From the IMG/VR virus record IMGVR_UViG_2711768053_000018, positions 1-19,782 of that record: 19,782 bases of DNA; one strand, written 5' to 3'. Origin of the DNA: a virus (lineage: Duplodnaviria > Heunggongvirae > Uroviricota > Caudoviricetes). Shown piece after piece: positions 815 to 18,049 of the stretch (within the stretch, counting starts at the first letter, position 1; every line of letters begins with the position of its first letter). The notes beneath the pieces were generated by a model that had not been told where the DNA came from, did not search any database, and worked only from the letters and a program-made list of their open reading frames with translations. The translations under genes were made by a program, and so were the position numbers.

Positions 815-889
<75 letters not shown>

Positions 890-892
890 ATA

Positions 893-968
<76 letters not shown>

Positions 969-1332: not shown

Positions 1333-1869
1333 TTAAGCATAATCGAACGCTTCTCTCATAGGTGAATACAAAATGAACTCAGCAACACGCAACCACTGCT
1401 CAACACGACGTCGGCATGTAATCAACGCCCACTCTGGGTACTGTTCGTTTAATAACTCTGCCATCCTTCTCTTACTCATCCCTCGCCCCACATAACGCTG
1501 ACTCAGGACATTTAGTAGTCCTGGATGATCCGCCAGAACTTCACCTATAACACTATCAATTTTTAGTGCCTCTGCATCAGTGCAGTGAGTTAACCAGCTT
1601 TTTTGCTTTCCTTCGATCATCTCACGCAAAAATGCTTCCAACTCTGGTTTATCAATTCCCGCTTTTTTCAATCTGCGCAGGGCTTCATTGATGGCTGTTT
1701 TTGTCATTTTTTGGGATGCCAGCAACTGGTTAAACATATTCCCTGACCTGCCGCCGCCAATATACGACCAGCGCCCCCACATACGTAGTTTTCCCTGAAT
1801 CCAGACACTTTCCAGCGTGGTGAGACGAAGGTGTTCTCCGCTTTTTCCTGTATTCGTTGGGTAAATCAT
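1333..1869 (-). CDS. Putative late-gene regulator (Q-like antiterminator candidate)
   Basis: Start placed at the internal ATG 1869 (MIYPTNTGKSG...) because it overlaps the upstream stop as TCATGA-type coupling. The assignment is positional: last gene before an AT-rich promoter/terminator region and the tRNAs. A C-terminal segment (GMSKRRMAELL) is HTH-like. Family not recognised with certainty. Confidence 0.4.
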   Translation of the reverse strand: MIYPTNTGKSGEHLRLTTLESVWIQGKLRMWGRWSYIGGGRSGNMFNQLLASQKMTKTAINEALRRLKKAGIDKPELEAFLREMIEGKQKSWLTHCTDAEALKIDSVIGEVLADHPGLLNVLSQRYVGRGMSKRRMAELLNEQYPEWALITCRRRVEQWLRVAEFILYSPMREAFDYA

Positions 1870-2156
1870 AAATATCCCTCCTTTCTCCAGATTTCTTGTG
1901 TGCGAAAAACACCTTCTGCATGCATCAGGCGTAATTCTTCTTTGGTGTAATCGCTGGTTTTTACCCGCCCGTCGATTAAATCGTGGCACGAGCTACAGGC
2001 AATCGCTGCCTGCATATTGTGTGGCTTTATCGCTGTTCCGCACGTTCCCGCCAGTCGGTAATGCGCCAGCACAGACGTTTCCGGATCGTGATTGCAGTAG
2101 CCAGGAATTCTGACGGTGCACATCTGCCCCCGCGTCGCTTTACGTAAGTCCACCAT
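1866..2156 (-). CDS. YbcO-like Cys-rich protein (DUF1364-like, putative nuclease)
   Basis: 96 aa, MVDLRKATRGQMCTVRIPGYCNHDPETSVLAH...IACSSCHD; resembles DLP12 YbcO from memory. Start overlaps the upstream stop (TAATG). Confidence 0.65.
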   Translation of the reverse strand: MVDLRKATRGQMCTVRIPGYCNHDPETSVLAHYRLAGTCGTAIKPHNMQAAIACSSCHDLIDGRVKTSDYTKEELRLMHAEGVFRTQEIWRKEGYL

Positions 2157-2755
2157 TACGCAAACTCCAGCAGCTGCGCGGCCACATTTTCGACTTGTTC
2201 CGGAGAGGAAAATTTACGGAACAGAATCCAGTTCCACAGCACATTCAGTACAGATTTATAAACCTGCTGAAACACGGTTTCGTCCATATTCGCAAACGCG
2301 ATAGATTTCGCCCGACGCCCACGGCTACCATCAGGATAAAGATGCTCGGTGTAAAATCCGGCCTGAATGGTTACCCACTCGCGGAAAGCCTCAAACGATT
2401 TTAGCAATGCCGTATCCCGGGTTCTGCGTGTCGCAACTGTATTTAGATATTGCTCTGCGGCATCACTCAGGGCTGGTGTGTGTTCCCGACCAACTGATTC
2501 GCACAGGTAATCCACGAAACCAGACAGCAGTTCTCGTTCGCGAGGCGTGATCGCCCCACCGACCGGAGTCCAGTAATCGAATCCCAGTTGCAGGAGTTTG
2601 AAAAAACGCTTGTGGAATGCGTAGTTACGCACACGCTTAAAGTCTGCGTGTATCCACTCACCTATTTTGATTTGATGCAGAAAATCGCAACTCTCCGGCG
2701 TCGCCGGGAGAAGTAAACCAGAAGAGGTTTGTTTGACCAGTTGTATATGCGCCAT
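2156..2755 (-). CDS. nin-region phage protein (DUF1367-like)
   Basis: 199-aa ORF translationally coupled to the downstream YbcO-like gene; family assignment from memory only. Confidence 0.5.
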   Translation of the reverse strand: MAHIQLVKQTSSGLLLPATPESCDFLHQIKIGEWIHADFKRVRNYAFHKRFFKLLQLGFDYWTPVGGAITPRERELLSGFVDYLCESVGREHTPALSDAAEQYLNTVATRRTRDTALLKSFEAFREWVTIQAGFYTEHLYPDGSRGRRAKSIAFANMDETVFQQVYKSVLNVLWNWILFRKFSSPEQVENVAAQLLEFA

Positions 2756-3218: not shown

Positions 3219-3752
3219 TTATTCCACCAAGCGGAAATGCCTAGCAAAATTTGACTTCATATCCGCAACAGGCTTTAACGCATCGTGTAGCCCCCGGGAA
3301 AACCACAGATGCTCTCGAATCCCCAGCTTAATTAATTTACCCAGCGAATCATTACATGCTATAAAATCCCTTTTAAAATCATTAATTCCGGATGTTTTCC
3401 TTCCGCAAAAACAATAAATCAACTGAGGAATGGATTTATTGCAGCACCAGCTCAATTCTTCTTCAAAATTACTTGTTTGCTGAAACAAATATATCCGATG
3501 CCCTCTGGAACGTAAAAATTTCACGTTTTCTATAAATCTTGCCGATTGCTCAACCTGATCTGAATCAAACACAACAAATATATCACTACCCTTTGGTATT
3601 GCCATCGCATACCTATGTATCCGATCCTGCCAGAAATTCTTCTTAACAACATCCTTCACAGCAATAATCTTATCTCTCTTCATTTTTTTGAACAGAGATA
3701 ATTCTGTTTCACCTTCAACGAAAACGATTGTAACTGTTGCTCTTGCTGCCAT
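3219..3752 (-). CDS. Small TOPRIM-like (OLD-type) nuclease-domain protein, partner of the upstream ATPase
   Basis: 177 aa. N-terminal IVFVEGETE (conserved Glu of TOPRIM strand 1) and VVFDSD (DxD motif). Start ATG lies 1 nt after the ATPase stop (TAAaATG). AT-rich by eye. Confidence 0.6.
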   Translation of the reverse strand: MAARATVTIVFVEGETELSLFKKMKRDKIIAVKDVVKKNFWQDRIHRYAMAIPKGSDIFVVFDSDQVEQSARFIENVKFLRSRGHRIYLFQQTSNFEEELSWCCNKSIPQLIYCFCGRKTSGINDFKRDFIACNDSLGKLIKLGIREHLWFSRGLHDALKPVADMKSNFARHFRLVE

Positions 3753-3753
3753 T

Positions 3754-4950
3754 TTAAAGCAACTCCGAAACTAAAGACATATCAGGCATAACGCCAAAGA
3801 TATCCCGTGCAACTGCACTTCGTATACTCCTGTCGTTTTTTTTCAGGAGTGAGCCTGCTTCAATGAACTCAGTGCAATCATTATCCTTTTTGAGAAAAAT
3901 GAACGAATGAACAGGCAAGTCAAGCTCAAAAATATCCATATTATGTGTGGTGTAGAAAAACTGAGTGTTTTCCTTAAGCCTAGAAATAATCAGCGTAACG
4001 ATTATCCGCTCCAGTTCTGAATGAGAGTAGGCTAACTTCTCATCAAGGTAATAGGTCATTGACGGAATGTTGGAGCACACACCAAGTTCTTCACAATCAG
4101 AGATTATCGCACTGACAAAATGAGCTATTGTGACAGCATCGAAGGTGCCCCGTGACATACGATCTGAGTTCGTTATGTCGCCTTTACTTGTTACGATTGA
4201 ATAATCCTTGTTTTTAAACCTTATCAAATAAACCTTGGTGGGATTTTTGCCTTCCGACTCAGGTTCAGTCATCTCAACGACGCCAACAATACTTGAATCA
4301 AAAGTGCGAATTATTCTTTCAAGAATATCTTTATTCATTCTTGAAATTTCAGCTGTACTTTCTTGAATCCCTGACAACTGGTAATACCACCCCCCCGAAA
4401 AAATAACGCTCTTGAAGGGTTCGAGAGTAACAGTATTACCATCAGAATAACTCTCATGAAAATAATATTCAGCAGAGGTTGGAGCCCCCGCAGAAAATAG
4501 TTTGTTTAGCTTTTCTGTTGTTTTAAAACAGGAGTCATTTATGTTTATTTTCACATAACCATATTTCACTTCTTTAACAAAAAGTGCACCTGTTTCATTT
4601 GCAGCAAAGCGAACATACAACCTGTGATGCAAGAAGTTCTCTGTCGCAAAATCCACTTCAAAGGAGGCATCCTGATCCCTGTGGTTAAGTCGCAGACTGG
4701 AGCGCAGCTCTTTGGTTCTGATAAAAACCTGAATCCCACACAATATTCTGCCCAGAGAGGTTTTCCCGGAAGCGTTCCCTCCAGTAATGATACAGACTTT
4801 CTTATAATAAAATTTAGGTCTGCCCGCCAGATGCTCACCCTCAAGCGGTATATTCACCTGCTTCTTGGGGTATGAAAGATTCAGTTCTGCGTTGCAGAAT
4901 GCATACAGATTTACAAGTTTTATGCGCGTGAAAATCATTTTTTCTTCCAT
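3754..4950 (-). CDS. ABC-type (AAA_21-like) ATPase of a candidate defence module
   Basis: 398 aa. Walker A ITGGNASGKTSLGRIL, Walker B-like YYLDE, H-loop FFYTTHNMD. An alternative start at 4938 (MIFTRIK) has a better-spaced GGAAG. Upstream minus-strand promoter candidate TTGTTG-17-GATAAT (plus 5000-4995 / 4977-4972). AT-rich relative to neighbours by eye. Confidence 0.8.
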   Translation of the reverse strand: MEEKMIFTRIKLVNLYAFCNAELNLSYPKKQVNIPLEGEHLAGRPKFYYKKVCIITGGNASGKTSLGRILCGIQVFIRTKELRSSLRLNHRDQDASFEVDFATENFLHHRLYVRFAANETGALFVKEVKYGYVKININDSCFKTTEKLNKLFSAGAPTSAEYYFHESYSDGNTVTLEPFKSVIFSGGWYYQLSGIQESTAEISRMNKDILERIIRTFDSSIVGVVEMTEPESEGKNPTKVYLIRFKNKDYSIVTSKGDITNSDRMSRGTFDAVTIAHFVSAIISDCEELGVCSNIPSMTYYLDEKLAYSHSELERIIVTLIISRLKENTQFFYTTHNMDIFELDLPVHSFIFLKKDNDCTEFIEAGSLLKKNDRSIRSAVARDIFGVMPDMSLVSELL

Positions 4951-5043: not shown

Positions 5044-5127
5044 TTATCCCCAGCGGCAAATCGAATACACCACCAGCGCCACCGCCATCGCAATTCCTAC
5101 CGTGGTGAATGCCTCAGGCCAAGTCAT
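5044..5127 (-). CDS. 27-aa hydrophobic small ORF candidate (MTWPEAFTTVGIAMAVALVVYSICRWG)
   Basis: ATG overlaps the stop of the DUF551 gene (ATGA) and is preceded by GGAGGTGA at 5-nt spacing; followed by a hairpin at about 5006-5023. Confidence 0.3.
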   Translation of the reverse strand: MTWPEAFTTVGIAMAVALVVYSICRWG

Positions 5128-5615
5128 TGATTCACCTCCTGCGGTGGTTCCGGTAGCGGCATCCAGTGTGATGGTATCCACGACGCACTAGGTATTACCC
5201 ACCCATCATTAGCGTCAGGATGCCCCGGGATGTAAGTCGCCCATTTCATTCTCCAGTCACCTTTCCTGTCAAACTCCCTGGCAACAAGAACGGCTGTTTT
5301 GCTATCTGGCATTCGCTCACTACAGCTTATCCAACCATCTGGAGCTACCGTCGCTGGCGGGGCGGTGTAAAGTGGAACAACTCGCCCTCCCCATTGCTTA
5401 ACACTACTCTCAGCGAACACTAAATGCTCAGTCCGATAATACCCAGGGGCATCAATATCTTTTCTTTCACTATCCCACATGTAAACCACCGGTTCAGCTT
5501 CCAGCGAGGCTAACGCTATTTCATAAGCCCGGCGCTCAATATTGTCTCGCACGTCTAGGCTGCCTATGCGCTCTTTGATTTCTTTAATCAGTTCTTTGTC
5601 GGTGAAAGTTGTCAT
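5124..5615 (-). CDS. DUF551-like phage protein
   Basis: 163 aa with C-terminal WISCSERMPD...WMPLPEPP, recalled as typical of DUF551 proteins in lambdoid nin regions. Confidence 0.65.
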   Translation of the reverse strand: MTTFTDKELIKEIKERIGSLDVRDNIERRAYEIALASLEAEPVVYMWDSERKDIDAPGYYRTEHLVFAESSVKQWGGRVVPLYTAPPATVAPDGWISCSERMPDSKTAVLVAREFDRKGDWRMKWATYIPGHPDANDGWVIPSASWIPSHWMPLPEPPQEVNQ

Positions 5616-5618
5616 GTG

Positions 5619-5906
5619 TTAGTCCTCATCCACTTCAACGCCATCTTTCAGCGTGATGCCGTGCCAATCATCAGCCCAACTGGTTAGCCCTGGCGCATCA
5701 ATGCTAGGCATATAGACGCTTGCAGTGTGGTAGCCCTTATCGTTATCAATGCTGGCAACGTGCTCGCCGTTGTATGCGCTCAGCGTGTCCAGGACGCTAT
5801 AAAACTTTCCTCCGGCTGCCCTGAAATCCTTTACAGCCTTCACAAGGCGATTCCACGCTTTTTCCTGTTCTGGCGTCAGGTCGATTAATTCCTGCAAAGT
5901 TGCCAT
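5619..5906 (-). CDS. Hypothetical phage protein
   Basis: Start set at the internal ATG 5906 (MATLQEL...) preceded by AAGGAG at 6-nt spacing. The track ORF extends to 5927. Confidence 0.55.
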   Translation of the reverse strand: MATLQELIDLTPEQEKAWNRLVKAVKDFRAAGGKFYSVLDTLSAYNGEHVASIDNDKGYHTASVYMPSIDAPGLTSWADDWHGITLKDGVEVDED

Positions 5907-5907
5907 A

Positions 5908-6420
5908 TCACTCTCCTTTGATGCCAATGTTTACAGCTTGGCAAGCCTCTTTGAGCACCCAGTCAATAGCGTCTTTCCATGCTCCGGTTTCGGCTGGCGG
6001 ATTCTCACGCTTTACCAGTTCATAGAAGCGCACTGCTTTAATCAATCCTTCTGGTGTCAGTGGCACAGGTGGAGCGGTGAATAACGCCTGAATTTCATAG
6101 TTCGGTCTGTCGTTGCAATCCTCTTTTGTCGGTACATATTTCCAGTCACCAACCCACGGCTCCCCCTGTGAGTCCGTAATGCCTTTTTTCACGTAGCGAT
6201 ATCGCCACGCTGTCGGCTCTGCTTCCAGCAATGCCAGCACAATTCGTGCCAGCTCACGCACTACTTCCGGGGGAGCGTAACGGTCATTCAGGTCATCCCA
6301 CAGGCGTAGCATGTTATCGCTACCAGGGTGAACATCCTCGTTAGTTCCGGCAAGCGCACTAATAACCTCATCGGCTGCCTCAATAATTTTCAGAGCTTGT
6401 TCTCTGGTAATAGTGGTCAT
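5908..6420 (-). CDS. Hypothetical phage protein
   Basis: 170-aa ORF in the coupled minus-strand gene run; start overlaps the upstream stop (ATGA at 6417-6420). Confidence 0.6.
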   Translation of the reverse strand: MTTITREQALKIIEAADEVISALAGTNEDVHPGSDNMLRLWDDLNDRYAPPEVVRELARIVLALLEAEPTAWRYRYVKKGITDSQGEPWVGDWKYVPTKEDCNDRPNYEIQALFTAPPVPLTPEGLIKAVRFYELVKRENPPAETGAWKDAIDWVLKEACQAVNIGIKGE

Positions 6421-6626
6421 TTGTTAACCCTCAAAACTTTATGCCCGGGCGCAAAAGCACGCGTTTTGTCTTTACTTATTCGCCACCCGTCTTTACGGGC
6501 CTCTTTTGCACAACCAGACCATGACGTACCGATATACTCACCGAAGTCTGGCACTGGATATACACCTTCCGTACACTGGCGGCAGTCACAATAGAGATGC
6601 ATGGTGTAACTTGCGGCAATAGCCAT
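6417..6626 (-). CDS. Hypothetical Cys-rich small protein
   Basis: 69 aa with YCDCRQC...SGC; AAGGAG RBS at 6-nt spacing, identical in sequence to the RBS of the gene at 5906. Confidence 0.55.
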   Translation of the reverse strand: MAIAASYTMHLYCDCRQCTEGVYPVPDFGEYIGTSWSGCAKEARKDGWRISKDKTRAFAPGHKVLRVNK

Positions 6627-6627
6627 A

Positions 6628-6816
6628 TCACTCTCCTTTAGTACGCAAGTGGTTTTTCCAGCGGTTTTGCGCCGCGCTGGGCTTGTTAAGAGAACACATC
6701 ACGATATCAGCCGTGTTTGTGAACAGCCCCATTCTGCGGTTACTGAGTTTTAACCATTGCTGGACGCCGCGAATGTTTCTACAGGTCAAAAGAATTTTTG
6801 CTTTACGGTTTTTCAT
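6628..6816 (-). CDS. Hypothetical basic small protein
   Basis: 62-aa K/R-rich ORF with GGAG about 9 nt upstream; weak support. Confidence 0.35.
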   Translation of the reverse strand: MKNRKAKILLTCRNIRGVQQWLKLSNRRMGLFTNTADIVMCSLNKPSAAQNRWKNHLRTKGE

Positions 6817-6878
6817 CGTTTTGTTCTCCGATTAGTTCAGCCATTTTTATTACCGCCCTTTCGGGCGGCATCCCGACA

Positions 6879-7091
6879 TTAATCGTTGTGGTAACTCATG
6901 GCTTCATTTGCAGCATCAACAGGATCAACCTCCCACCAGCAATAATTTGGGTCGGTTCCTTCAGGTGTCCACGGTTCTAATTCATTTTTTGCCACATTCT
7001 CGTCACCAGTTATTTTAAGAATCTGCTCAGAGAATTTTTTCACCCACTCGTTATATTTTTCAGTGTTAATGGTTTTCTGAATATTTGACAT
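6879..7091 (-). CDS. Hypothetical phage protein
   Basis: 70-aa ORF with a strong GGAGG RBS at 7-nt spacing. Confidence 0.6.
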   Translation of the reverse strand: MSNIQKTINTEKYNEWVKKFSEQILKITGDENVAKNELEPWTPEGTDPNYCWWEVDPVDAANEAMSYHND

Positions 7092-7175
7092 AGATATTCC
7101 TCCGGTTAAGGATTCTATTTTATTTACAGTGCTAAATTTAATTATTCAGATATACGTATCTGTAACCTTACGAAC

Positions 7176-7664
7176 CTACTCACTGGATGCCTCCTTCATA
7201 AAAAGAATCCAGTGGGTCTTGTCACCCTTTCCTGTTCGTTGACCGATAACAGGCTTTCTGTCGGTCAGTGCCAATATCTGGCGAACAGGTATTTGCGTTT
7301 CATTCCATTTAAAAATCAGAACGCCATGTGGCCACAACACACGAAAGGCTTCTTTAAATCCCTGCCGCAAATCATCACGCCAGGTATCTTTATTCAGCCG
7401 TCCATATTTCTTTCCCATCCAGGCATTATCACCAATACGCTCAAGATGCGGAGGGTCGAATACAACAACCGGAAACGATGCGTCTGCAAATGGTAATGCT
7501 CGAAAATCTGCTATCAGGTCAGGACAGATAATCAGGCGTCGTCCATCACACAATGTGTGCTCTTCTTTTCTGATATCGCTAAATATCGCCCGTTCGTCAT
7601 TCTTATCAAACCAGAACATGCGACTGCCACAGCACATGTCGAGAATGGTAGCCGACGCACTCAC
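7176..7664 (-). CDS. SAM-dependent methyltransferase, probably DNA N6-adenine (phage orphan MTase)
   Basis: 162 aa. Motif I-like LDMCCGSRMFW and motif IV DPPH (VVVFDPPH), in the order typical of amino-methyltransferases. No adjacent restriction-enzyme gene. Confidence 0.7.
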   Translation of the reverse strand: MSASATILDMCCGSRMFWFDKNDERAIFSDIRKEEHTLCDGRRLIICPDLIADFRALPFADASFPVVVFDPPHLERIGDNAWMGKKYGRLNKDTWRDDLRQGFKEAFRVLWPHGVLIFKWNETQIPVRQILALTDRKPVIGQRTGKGDKTHWILFMKEASSE

Positions 7665-8083
7665 AACATCACCTCCTCAAAATTCCCCTGATAAAACGCC
7701 AGTACACGCTGCATAACTTCGCTCTTCCGGCACTCACGGCAGATTATGTTCTGACGCCTGTCGTAGCGACGTATTTCTCCGTCAGGTAATGACCAGATAA
7801 GGTCAGGATCAACCACAACCGTTTTTTTCACCTTTGCCCTTGAGAGTTTTTTGCGGGCGTTTTGCCAGTCCTTACGGGCCTGTTCAGACGGGAATAACCC
7901 GTAGCCAGAGTTGTATACATCACCACTGGCAACCAGCTCCCTGGCGAGAATGCTCATCAGATATCTTGTCGCACCTGTCTTGGCTTCCAGTTGTCGTAAC
8001 GTCTCGCGACCGCTCAGACGTACAAGTTCAACAACCTGCCCTTTAATTTTTTCCCGCTCTTCTGGTGTAAATACTTTTGCCAT
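7661..8083 (-). CDS. Hypothetical phage protein
   Basis: Start set at ATG 8083 (MAKVFTPEE...) preceded by GGAGG at 5-nt spacing; the track ORF extends to 8098. Stop overlaps the MTase start. Confidence 0.55.
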   Translation of the reverse strand: MAKVFTPEEREKIKGQVVELVRLSGRETLRQLEAKTGATRYLMSILARELVASGDVYNSGYGLFPSEQARKDWQNARKKLSRAKVKKTVVVDPDLIWSLPDGEIRRYDRRQNIICRECRKSEVMQRVLAFYQGNFEEVML

Positions 8084-8098
8084 AGGTGCCTCCGGCAA

Positions 8099-8860
8099 TC
8101 ACTTTTCCGACACAATACGACTGGAGGAATCGAAAATCTGTCGAACAATATCCCGGTGCTTGTTCAGCTCCCGCAGCGCGGCGCAGACTCGCTCCCACTT
8201 CTGGACATGATTTTTCGCCCGACGCAGTTCGCGGTTTGCCATATGCAGCGATGGTAAAACCAGGTCATCTGCTCGCGTTTCAGTGAACGATGGCAGCGGC
8301 TGCACAATGTCCGCCACAGTTTCTGTTTTAATTTCTTCCTGTATTGCAGCCTCCTGTACTGGTAAAACAACACATGCAGGCTGAGGAAAGGCTTTACCAT
8401 CATTTTCCGTTACCGATGCAGCTTTCGGCTCTGCTGGTAAATTATCGCCCGGTATGCAGTAACGAAATTTACCGTTCTGGTTTACGCGAATCAGGCGTCC
8501 TTTGCAGATTGCCATTGCCAGCGTTGAAGCCACTTTGCGGGATGTTGTACCAAACAGCGTAGCCAGTTCATCCGCCGTTTGTGGTCCACGCTGCTCAATC
8601 GTCGCAGTTAAATCGCACTCTGAGATTTTCGCTACTGTTGCCGTGGTGGTTTCTTCCGGCAGTTCTGCCTGCATTGGCTGTTCCTGCTGAACGTTGTTAT
8701 CAGCCACACGCCAGGTGTACGCGCTTTTATCAACGAAACCAGCTTTTTTCAGTTCCCATAGTTCGTTCAGCACTTCTTCACGACTGATATCAAGTCGCGC
8801 AGCAAGTTCTATGGATGTGGCTTTTCCCATTGCTTTCAGTGCGTCAAAAACAGTCTCCAT
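8099..8860 (-). CDS. Phage protein with two winged-helix-like DNA-binding segments
   Basis: 253 aa. Two similar segments ([30 protein letters not shown] and [30 protein letters not shown]). GGGAGG RBS at 8-nt spacing. Confidence 0.6.
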
Positions 8861-8893: not shown

Positions 8894-9559
8894 TCAAACA
8901 AAACCAGCCGCTTTCCGGCGTTCATATTCCTGTTTCAGCAACTCAATTGGTGTTGGCCCCGACGGGCGTTCTGGTGCTGCCAGTTGCCGCCGTACGGGCG
9001 GAACGCTGAAGCCGTCACCAACATGCTTTGCCCATTTCGCCAGTTGCCGTTCTGCAAGTCGTTTTAACTCCCCTTCGGTCATCTGGCGCTCAATCCCCTT
9101 TGAACGCATCTCGAGGCAAATGTGATACAGCACAGGCTGAGACCACGGGTATTTATCGCTTCCGTCGTATCGCCAGGACTCGTTGCGCCAGCGTCGGTAC
9201 TCCTCCATCACAGCATCCACCGTCAGACCGAATGGATTGGCCCCGCTTTCCGAAATCAGCGCCACAAACTCAGCCAGGTCCGGAGGCCATGTTTCACCCG
9301 TCCGGCAGCGGTCCATGCACTGGCGGCAGACCTGTCGGATTTGCTGCTCAGTCATCGCACCAATCTGTGCAATCCAGAGCTTCGAAGGTGCGGCCCCGTT
9401 CTTCTGGGTCCAGCGGTTCGAATAAACCTCCCCCATGAGTTCCCACAACTTCCAGGCCGTTTCCGTCGCTGATAAATCCGTTTTCACGTTCCCACTGCTC
9501 ACGTGCTGCCCGAATTTCCTGAACTGCCCGTGATGCGGTGCCACCTGGTGCTGCTGCAT
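8894..9559 (-). CDS. Replication protein P-like (helicase-loader family)
   Basis: Colinear similarity to lambda P from memory ([46 protein letters not shown]). Start uncertain: the track start 9559 overlaps the O-like ORF by 212 nt; internal ATGs are at 9436 and 9358. Confidence 0.65.
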
Positions 9560-10472
9560 GGTTCACCCCCTTGCTGACTGGTTTAACCTGCGCCCTGACG
9601 TGATTTACGTGACGGGCGAATTTCTGCTCCCACTGAACCTGCGTGAAAACTTTCCCCTCCGCTGCCCAGTAGTCCCGGAAGGCGGCAAGTTCAGCTGGTG
9701 TAAATTCCGGCTCCGGCAGAGCCACTCCCCACAGAGCTGCCCGCCGTCGAAAATCCAGCGACGGATGCCAGCCATCAGTCATCGGAAATTTCCCGATGGG
9801 TTCGTTCAGGCCTTCCAGGTAATCAGGTTCCGCTGTCTGCAACGGCACGCCATTTGCCTCACTGGCCGGAGCACTCTCGCGCACGCGCGCGTTATGTGTG
9901 GGGTTTATATATCTGTTATCTGTTATCTGGATACCGCATGACAAAGCGTTAGCCTTATCCTTAGGCTTATCCTCAGGCAAAGGGATTGCCTTATCGAATG
10001 CCATCCCCAAAGCCTCAGAAACCCCATAGGACGCGGCTCTCAGCGATTCCCTAGCCTCCCATTTGAGAGGACAATCAGGAATTAAAGCGAATGCCTTTGC
10101 CCAGGATTTAATGACATTTATCGAGTTTGGCGGATTGTGTTTCGCAGCATTCGGGAGCCAAAAAACTCTGGCTTTGATATCTGCTTTCACCATGCCAAGA
10201 TTCATGGCTTCGCCTAAGGCTAAGTCAAAGGCTTCGATATCCCACCCCAACTCTTCAGCCATTGCTGCCCGCCCGGCTTTAAACAACCCAGGAATAATCC
10301 CGGTAAATGGACTGGTCAGCAGATAAATAAACAAACTCTGTCCACTTGGAGGCAGAGGAGATAACGCCCTAAATTTGGGATCATCCCATATCGTTATTTT
10401 TACCTTGCGATAAGGCTCATTGTTTGCCTTAGTTTTTGGCATGGGATTTGGCATATTTTTAGCCTTAACCAT
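9348..10472 (-). CDS. Replication initiator (O-like) with a DnaT-like C-terminal region
   Basis: Track ORF 9348..10526 begins with a TTG; first ATG is at 10472 (MVKAKNMP...) with GAGG at 5-nt spacing. Contains an internal iteron/AT-rich region, as in lambda O. C-terminal region resembles the DnaT-type domain from memory. Confidence 0.6.
9906..9996. repeat. Putative replication origin: iteron-like repeats plus AT-rich tract inside the O-like gene
   Basis: Three copies of G(C/G)CTTATC(C/G) at 9952-9960, 9964-9972 and 9988-9996 (12- and 24-bp spacing), then an AT-rich tract with tandem ATCTGTT repeats at 9906-9933. In the direction of O translation, iterons precede the AT-rich tract, as in lambda ori. 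Confidence 0.45.
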
Positions 10473-10551
10473 AATTGCCTCATCTGGTGTCGAACCTTCC
10501 TCCGGATATAATCTGTGATTCCCCAATCAACAGAACCAAAGGAGGTTCGAC

Positions 10552-11112: not shown

Positions 11113-11535
11113 TTAATGAACAACAACAGAATCGCCGGACGAACCACCGCCGCTGAAATGCGCTTTCCGGTAAACGGCCTGGACTGCATCATCATGCGCA
11201 TCAATTGCCGTACTCAACGCTTCCTGCGCCGCCAGTAATGCACGGCGTTCCAGGGTATCGAAGATGCAGAGTCGGTGACGCAGCTCGCGCGGAAGGATTG
11301 CCAGAATTGCTGGGATCAGCTTCTGAATTTTTTCTCTTTGCGTTTTCGTTTCACCTTTCAACCAACGGTGATAGATATTCTGCTGATTGTTCCAGTCCTT
11401 GCCTGGAACCAGGGGCAATTCGCCGCCCCCCTGGCGCAGATATTCTTCAGTAATTGCATTGGCTACCCATGCCTGCCCTTTTTCGGCTGCCAGGGCAAAC
11501 AACACTGATTCGATGTGCTCATGCTTGATTTTCAT
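11113..11535 (-). CDS. ydaT: YdaT-like protein (Rac early-right operon)
   Basis: 140 aa, same length as K-12 YdaT from memory, and positioned directly after ydaS. Confidence 0.75.
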   Translation of the reverse strand: MKIKHEHIESVLFALAAEKGQAWVANAITEEYLRQGGGELPLVPGKDWNNQQNIYHRWLKGETKTQREKIQKLIPAILAILPRELRHRLCIFDTLERRALLAAQEALSTAIDAHDDAVQAVYRKAHFSGGGSSGDSVVVH

Positions 11536-11557: not shown

Positions 11558-11854
11558 TCAGGTATGATCAAATGAGGATTTGTTACTGTCATTTAGTTGC
11601 TTCACTGACATATTCTGCGAACAACATGCCGAACGTCGTAAATATGACCAGTCAATATCAGGACGAAGCTCTTCGCACAGAACCTCACCTCTTGTTGCTC
11701 GTTCAATTGCTGGACATCTCTCGGCAGGCAATTGACGTACCCCTTTGATCCATTGATTTACGCTTGGAGGTGATACACCTAAAAGCCTAGCCATTGCTGA
11801 TTGCCCACCGACAACAGCACAAGCTTGCTTGAATGAATAGTTCTCTTTTTTCAT
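11558..11854 (-). CDS. ydaS: YdaS-like Cro-type HTH protein
   Basis: 98 aa with HTH segment QACAVVGGQSAMARLLGVSPPSVNQW; divergent from racR across the operator region; GGAG RBS. Confidence 0.8.
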   Translation of the reverse strand: MKKENYSFKQACAVVGGQSAMARLLGVSPPSVNQWIKGVRQLPAERCPAIERATRGEVLCEELRPDIDWSYLRRSACCSQNMSVKQLNDSNKSSFDHT

Positions 11855-17798: not shown

Positions 17799-17839
17799 TC
17801 CAGCCTGGCGGTGTAATGCACCGCCAACGTGAGATAGTT

Positions 17840-18049
17840 TTTATGACAAAAACTTTGAGATATGACGATGTTAAACCATGTCCGTTTTGTGGTTGTCCAT
17901 CAGTAACGGTGAAAGACATTTCAGGATATTACCGGGCAAAATGCAACGGATGCGAATCCCGAACTGGCTATGGTGGAAGTGAAAAAGAAGCGCTCGAAAG
18001 ATGGAATAAACGAACTACTGAAAATATTAATGGAGGCGTTCATGTATAA
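17840..18049 (+). CDS. ralR: Restriction alleviation protein RalR (Lar)
   Basis: Start at ATG 17840 (MTKTLRYDDVKPCPFCGCPS...); Cys-rich; matches Rac RalR from memory. Confidence 0.8.
   Translation, partial: FMTKTLRYDDVKPCPFCGCPSVTVKDISGYYRAKCNGCESRTGYGGSEKEALERWNKRTTENINGGVHV

Follow-up and report, generated by a model that had tools for sequence, protein, structure and literature searches.

What does a very small methyltransferase without a restriction partner do for a temperate phage? The question is raised by one gene of IMG/VR record IMGVR_UViG_2711768053_000018, a 19,782-nucleotide (nt) sequence from a virus of the Caudoviricetes that was analyzed over its full length and is referred to here as the window. 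The listed open reading frame (ORF) of 162 amino acids (aa) at 7176..7664 on the minus strand is the coding sequence of a methyltransferase (MTase), and an earlier reading made from the letters alone had proposed that it is an orphan enzyme of the early region with a possible anti-restriction function. The results presented here tip the balance modestly toward an orphan phage DNA methyltransferase with a protective role. In such a role, the gene would be silent in the lysogen under repressor control, and induction would switch on synthesis of the enzyme along with that of the replication proteins. It would then methylate replicating phage DNA, at N6 of adenine or N4 of cytosine, before packaging. 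Progeny DNA would enter the next host already modified and would escape some restriction systems, a partial protection.

The gene, its start codon and its conserved core

Comparison with homologues confirms that the ORF is far beyond chance and that the gene is intact. The top homologues match at E = 3e-102, more than 7800 clusters at 90% identity match, and an exhaustive search of 1.84 billion cluster representatives returned 2014 matches at E <= 0.001 and 1112 at E <= 1e-10. Translation begins at a GTG (7662-7664) that shares the nucleotides GTGA with the TGA stop of the upstream DUF977 gene, as read from the sequence, and the annotation of strain 2013C-3342 shows the same 4-nt overlap. The overlap suggests that translation of the MTase is coupled to that of the DUF977 gene. 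The preceding Shine-Dalgarno sequence, GGAGGTGAT, is nearly fully complementary to the 3' end of 16S rRNA, indicating a strong ribosome-binding site.

Positions 6800-8200 of the window are 100% identical to Escherichia coli SC418 (NZ_LR778147.1), yet the PGAP annotation of that genome places the start at Met16 (147 aa, WP_263576085.1, H1D11_RS15935), which cuts motif I off the protein. The 15 residues dropped by PGAP are conserved from E. coli to Enterococcus, across phyla, in an alignment of 34 family members from phages of Proteobacteria, Firmicutes and Actinobacteria, and the annotated start in other strains is the position equivalent to the GTG. These two observations show that the GTG is the right start. 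The PGAP call in SC418 should be corrected, since motif I is lost. Truncated calls of 142-148 aa are also present among the protein clusters.

The motif I and the DPPH motif IV that had been reported for this protein are both read directly from the DNA (Table 1). The 34-member alignment has 41 invariant columns, including L8, D9, G13, S14, D30, R32, D53, F54, V67, F69-D-P-P-H-L74, G78, Y87, G88, W95, G102, R108-V-L110, G114, F118-K-W120, P138 and T150-H-W152. The positions predicted to contact S-adenosylmethionine (SAM), D9/G13, D30 and D53-F54, are conserved in the family. A wider sample of 124 representatives at 50% identity has a median pairwise identity of 44%; DPPH is present in 122 of 123 representatives, and the only common insertion is one of approximately 6 residues after position 40. 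The family is a bare SAM-binding core of approximately 155 aa.

The AlphaFold model (pLDDT 84.6, pTM 0.84) has a class I methyltransferase fold, with strands at residues 7-10, 26-30, 34-37, 43-46, 64-69, 110-121, 140-144 and 150-156 and only three helices, at 82-87, 95-109 and 127-131. It is a class I sheet that lacks the usual helices A to C, and the protein ends at the last core strand (beta-7). With a seven-stranded sheet, the glycine loop of motif I, an acidic residue where beta-2 ends and a D/E-aromatic motif III, the protein belongs to class I (Rossmann-fold) of the SAM-dependent methyltransferases. Enzymes that methylate exocyclic or amide nitrogens are marked by a (D/N/S)PPx tetrapeptide immediately following strand 4, as in DNA N6-methyladenine (m6A) and N4-methylcytosine (m4C) enzymes, RNA N2-methylguanine (m2G) and m6A enzymes, and HemK. 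In the model, D70-P-P-H73 stands directly after strand 64-69, which places the protein among the amino-methyltransferases.

Orphan status, substrate and proposed protective function

The early-region assignment of the sequence-only reading is borne out. The YdaS/Cro-like, YdaT, DnaT-domain and lambda-P-like genes precede the MTase on its own strand, and the Q-like antiterminator gene follows it. It is part of the early rightward operon, between the lambda-P-like gene and the Q-like antiterminator, a position equivalent to the lambda ren-nin region. Promoter-like matches around the gene occur at chance level only, with no indication of a dedicated promoter, and terminator-like matches are scattered (7 versus 2.4 expected), with none at the ends of the MTase. 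Since no promoter or terminator matches above chance bracket the gene, its transcription most likely extends from the early promoter.

The claim that the gene has no partner restriction gene is likewise upheld. Pfam and PHROG scans of the flanking ORFs found no nuclease domain among the neighbors in the window, so the label "orphan" is correct, and the locus lacks the adjacent cognate endonuclease of a type II restriction-modification system. The same is seen across the family. A Pfam scan of the ORFs directly adjoining the MTase on either side in 75+ species (150 proteins) found no Pfam family more than three times and no recurrent partner. The matches are to prophage early genes: integrase, TraR zinc finger, PAPS reductase, RecT, ERF, replication O, CII, NinX and AlpA. 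N6_N4, MT-A70 and C5 DNA methylases were each found once, indicating occasional methylase clusters; no restriction-enzyme family was found among these 150 neighbors, and there was one HNH_2 match. Because neither a recurrent nor a restriction-enzyme family appears, the MTase family is orphan everywhere, with no fixed partner. The DUF977 protein was considered as a specificity partner and rejected; it is the upstream neighbor in only 2 of 75 other species and stands alone in other prophages.

The family is widespread. Among 5426 complete E. coli genomes, 1006 carry the gene (>= 80% nucleotide identity), some of them in as many as five copies, and a scan of one genome per species found a relative in at least 575 species. 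Searches with tblastn identified relatives in 254 phage records, with 46-65% identity over the full length. By phage host, the records include Streptococcus (68), Vibrio (38), Acinetobacter (19), Porphyromonas (15), Listeria (12), Gordonia (11), Lactobacillus (11), Enterococcus (11) and Staphylococcus (10), as well as Bacteroides, Fusobacterium and Corynebacterium. In phiFL1A, Gordonia phage Bosnia and pneumococcal phage phiARI0031, the MTase is in the replication/recombination module, by RecT, SSB, a replication initiator and RusA. In Bosnia (L005 2469..4468), it overlaps a gene for a 508-aa "DNA methylase" by 4 nt. The latter protein was rejected as a relative of the MTase, as profile comparison gave a probability of only 0.35%.

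Some homologues are longer, but their N- or C-terminal extensions are mutually unrelated, and the sole recognizable domain among them is an N-terminal ASCH domain in homologue P0334. The 229-position profile of PHROG 954 had implied that the window MTase is N-terminally truncated. This possibility was rejected, because the extensions are unrelated and resemble start mis-calls or chance fusions. A 248-aa form with a conserved C-terminal extension of approximately 90 aa recurs in Enterobacteriaceae (P0013, P0017, P0119 and others), and homologue P0270 has an ASCH-like N-terminus, seen by eye only.

The evidence for DNA as the substrate comes from profile matches and from genomic position, as the MTase always occupies phage replication/recombination modules, at times adjoining other DNA methylases. 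The hidden Markov model (HMM) of PHROG 954, "DNA methyltransferase", matches the MTase over its full length at 2.4e-87, and the REBASE-derived PADLOC models MTase_II (PDLC03288) and oMTase (PDLC03730) match at 2.1e-73 and 4e-49. Among 39 family members compared with Pfam, 25 match N6_N4_Mtase (best E = 9.3e-5), the one specific Pfam family to recur. These matches are always colinear, with residues ~62-128 aligned to profile positions 2-65, from DPPx through the "RVLKPxG" strand (motifs IV-VIII). Assignment to a methyltransferase family by HMM, which had been proposed as a check on the earlier reading, gave a divided outcome: the DNA methyltransferase models of PHROG 954 and PADLOC match over the full length, whereas Pfam N6_N4_Mtase is matched only below threshold, and in homologues. 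None of the 39 members matched Dam-type PF02086, phage PF05869 or MT-A70 at E <= 1.

Several observations weigh against a protective DNA methyltransferase. The PHROG and PADLOC families are computational, so "DNA methyltransferase" is an annotation-level and not an experimental label; the source databases call it no more than a "class I SAM-dependent methyltransferase", and a literature search found no experimental paper on the family. Independent evidence for a DNA substrate is weak. The N6_N4_Mtase scores of six inspected homologues (15.1-20.8 bits) are under the 26.7-bit cut-off, and the window MTase itself has no match to this family at E <= 1. Its Pfam matches are generic and below threshold, namely Methyltransf_11 (20.1 bits, cut-off 21.2) and Methyltransf_25. 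Membership in the beta class is not indicated, as the inspected scores are under the gathering cut-off and motif I (residues 8-15) precedes motif IV (70-73). Among solved structures, the closest folds belong to generic or RNA methyltransferases; the first DNA methyltransferase found by Foldseek, M.TaqI, is at rank 33 (E = 1.3e-4). Searches of PDB sequences, with the single protein or with a 34-sequence profile, matched no solved DNA methyltransferase. No variable segment that could serve as a target-recognition domain was found in the 124 representatives. Finally, the anti-restriction role, though plausible, is purely inferred.

The fold scores are what any class I methyltransferase would give and do not discriminate between substrates, and the only PDB sequence match is marginal, to the generic PH0226 protein (E = 4.8e-4). 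The motif order fits the gamma class (M.TaqI, HsdM), but the family has neither a C-terminal target-recognition domain nor a conserved neighbor. Small size alone does not exclude DNA activity, because PamA, a 141-aa phage Dam from Staphylococcus aureus phage mPhi11, is an active GATC methylase (PMC12435837). The earlier statement that target specificity is not readable from the sequence holds, as the family has no target-recognition domain. Given this absence, together with 46-65% identity across phyla, all members would be expected either to recognize a single, very short target or to show little sequence specificity.

An RNA substrate is unlikely but has to be considered. The MTase could be an RNA amino-methyltransferase (m2G, m6A or m4C on tRNA or rRNA), like the small domain-less RsmD or Trm11, that alters RNA of the host or the phage in the lytic cycle, for instance to shield tRNAs against anticodon nucleases. 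RNA m2G enzymes share the (D/N)PP(F/Y/H) motif, the ASCH domain of P0334 is of a type usually read as RNA- or modified-base-binding, and the prophage has two tRNA genes. However, none of the 39 members matched the RNA m2G families MTS (PF05175) or Cons_hypoth95 (PF03602) at E <= 1, and UPF0020 (PF01170) was matched by only 2 (E = 0.24), compared with the 25 for N6_N4_Mtase. Membership in the RNA m2G families is not indicated. Moreover, location in the replication/recombination module, sometimes by DNA methylases, is usual for phage DNA methyltransferases.

A DNA methyltransferase with a job other than anti-restriction is a minor possibility. The mark might time replication or packaging, control gene expression, or serve to divert or trigger host defenses. 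The evidence for DNA as the substrate is identical in this case, and near-identical enzymes are found where host restriction systems differ widely, a poor fit to protection against one enzyme. Regulatory effects of phage Dam-type enzymes are documented (PamA, PMC12435837). On the other hand, no data indicate a regulatory target, and low-specificity phage methyltransferases are generally read as protective (PMC4659465, PMC3299994). The gene is also dispensable, being absent from 4420 of the 5426 E. coli genomes and from most Rac-like prophages.

It is quite unlikely that the substrate is a protein or small molecule. The MTase would in that case be a generic Methyltransf_11-type or HemK/EEF1AKMT1-like enzyme that modifies, for example, a host factor or a signaling nucleotide. 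Methyltransf_11 and Methyltransf_25 are the only Pfam families matched by all 39 members, NCBIfam gives a weak match to a HemK-like putative methyltransferase, and N6-adenineMlase (PF10237), a family now regarded as protein-lysine methylases, is matched by 2 of the 39 (E = 0.13). The strict DPPH and the invariant W82, K85, K86, Y87, W95, W120, H151 and W152 are more typical of base-flipping enzymes, however, and no conserved neighbor presents itself as a protein substrate, and the genomic position is typical of DNA methyltransferases. An inactive remnant or mis-called ORF is barely credible: PGAP's product without motif I and the missing helices A to C would fit it, but the residues removed by PGAP are conserved across phyla, the GTG has a near-perfect ribosome-binding site, and every catalytic position is kept in thousands of full-length homologues.

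A protective orphan DNA methyltransferase is, in itself, an ordinary finding, as orphan methyltransferases are commonplace in prophage early regions. The novelty is low; RefSeq, PHROGs and PADLOC all contain the family already, with labels that are generic or computational. The wider interest is in a common, tiny, domain-less DPPH enzyme that has apparently never been characterized. No experimental support was found for the label "DNA methyltransferase", though the gene is in approximately one-fifth of complete E. coli genomes and in phages of many phyla. A bolder proposal, which is improbable, is that the family is the smallest natural type of DNA methyltransferase, with little or no specificity, or alternatively that it does not act on DNA and represents a new phage-specific substrate class. 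As a DNA enzyme, it could methylate adenine or cytosine, possibly on single-stranded or replicating DNA. If so, temperate phages of five phyla (Proteobacteria, Firmicutes, Actinobacteria, Bacteroidetes and Fusobacteria) would share one broad anti-restriction shield. Non-specific DNA methylation, if true, would explain the high conservation of the family, and a 155-aa enzyme would be a compact tool for footprinting, which now uses M.EcoGII or Hia5.

Prophage setting and other putative defense-related cargo

The SC418 element is a Rac-like prophage integrated beside ttcA. One arm carries intR, xisR, ralR, recT, recE and kilR, and the lysis and terminase genes are in the opposite arm. Beyond the identical segment, the remainder of the window is a mosaic relative of this prophage. 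The features of the window are listed in Table 1.

Table 1. Features of the methyltransferase gene and of the surrounding prophage, in window coordinates.
Feature	Coordinates	Strand	Basis or remarks
Orphan SAM-dependent amino-methyltransferase, coding sequence	7176..7664	-	162 aa, GTG start; PHROG, PADLOC, homologues, AlphaFold
Motif I (SAM-binding loop), LDMCCGSR	7620..7643	-	residues 8-15; L8, D9, G13 and S14 invariant in 34 homologues
Motif IV, DPPH, predicted catalytic	7446..7457	-	residues 70-73; GAC CCT CCG CAT; after strand beta-4
Shine-Dalgarno sequence GGAGGTGAT	7668..7676	-	7 nt 5' of the MTase GTG, within the 3' end of the DUF977 gene
YdaS/Cro-like	11558..11854	-	Pfam; start of early operon
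YdaT	11113..11535	-	Pfam; early operon
DnaT-domain initiator	9348..10526	-	Pfam; early operon
Lambda-P-like replication gene	8894..9559	-	Pfam; early operon
DUF1627	8099..8860	-	Pfam/PHROG scans
DUF977 / Ren-like gene	7661..8098	-	Pfam DUF977 1.2e-29; PHROG 142 "Ren-like exclusion protein"
Five small or unknown ORFs	5619..7091	-	Pfam/PHROG scans
DUF551	5124..5615	-	Pfam/PHROG scans
AbiL-like pair	3219..4950	-	Pfam/PHROG/PADLOC scans
DUF1367	2156..2755	-	Pfam/PHROG scans
YbcO	1866..2156	-	Pfam/PHROG scans
DUF1133 / Q-like antiterminator	1333..1989	-	Pfam/PHROG scans
Two tRNAs, tRNA-Gly(TCC) and tRNA-Thr(TGT)	815..968	-	between Q-like antiterminator and lysis genes
RalR/Lar restriction-alleviation gene	17816..18049	+	Pfam Lar_restr_allev 2.2e-14, 53.8 bits

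Alignments to other E. coli prophages begin at ~7092..7096, in an AT-rich spacer just 3' of the MTase stop, and the cargo downstream varies. It seems likely from this boundary that DUF1627, DUF977 and the MTase move as one mosaic block. The replication module has also been exchanged: window positions 8894..10526 encode the DnaT-domain initiator and the lambda-P-like protein, where SC418 (L001 16084..17694) has ydaU/ydaV, and the swapped genes sit inside an otherwise near-identical prophage.

The sequence-only reading had paired the MTase with a ralR gene at 17840..18049 as a second restriction-evasion function. The gene itself is confirmed, as its score is well above the Pfam Lar_restr_allev cut-off of 28.6 bits, and the closest genome, SC418, annotates it as ralR. 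The start at 17840 does not stand; it is a few bases off and matches no start option. The in-frame options are Met1 (17816), Met10 (17843) and the PGAP codon (~17855, giving the 64-aa form in RefSeq), and the likely starts are Met10 or the PGAP codon.

The cassette between DUF551 and DUF1367 looks like abortive-infection or defense cargo of the AbiL type, judged from profile matches. Its first gene encodes a 398-aa ATPase (PADLOC AbiLi, 8.2e-23; weak AriA, AAA_21 and AAA_15 matches), and the second encodes a 177-aa protein with weak AbiLii/RloB-like matches (8e-4 and 8.5e-3). In SC418, this segment is replaced by a hokD-containing stretch. Outside the window, near terminase, the SC418 prophage (L001 1..858) has genes for an anti-CBASS protein of the Acb1 family and for a protein with a ParB/Srx domain, and it therefore appears to carry several counter-defense candidates besides RalR.

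Comparison with known systems

The RNA enzymes Trm11, TrmN, RsmC and RsmD have no HMM-level similarity to the MTase. They are encoded by housekeeping genes, not phage early genes. In addition, they keep helices A to C, and most either bind RNA through additional domains (THUMP and others) or modify assembled ribosomes.

Beta-class DNA methyltransferases (PF01555) resemble the family over the first 65 profile positions, which align colinearly with the segment from DPPx to "RVLKPxG" in 25 of the 39 members. In the beta class, motif I is C-terminal and a target-recognition domain lies between the two halves, whereas in the MTase motif I is N-terminal and there is no such domain.

The prophage enzymes M.EcoGII, M.EcoGI and Hia5/Hin1523/Nme1821 lack a restriction partner, stay silent during lysogeny and presumably shield phage DNA broadly (PMC5778455, PMC3299994, PMC4659465). 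The MTase is likewise prophage-borne, without a restriction partner, and has a (D)PPx motif IV; the FxGxG-type motif I of this group is a further likeness. The differences are considerable. The Hia5 group is 33-38 kDa and M.EcoGII is of the beta class, and both have a recognizable, if divergent, target-recognition region, unlike the MTase. These enzymes have DPPY with the alpha or beta order of motifs, whereas the MTase has DPPH, with motif I before motif IV and nothing after motif VIII. Their activity is demonstrated, whereas that of the MTase is predicted, and there is no detectable sequence similarity. M.EcoGIX, M.EcoGI, M.EcoGII and Hia5 were rejected as characterized relatives, being of different classes.

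PamA was also rejected as a characterized relative; it has NPPY and Dam-type homology, and the 39 family members have no match to PF05869 or PF02086. Like the MTase, PamA and the small phage Dam enzymes of the PF05869 type are tiny orphans encoded in the early region of temperate phages, with a catalytic tetrapeptide at approximately residue 65-70.
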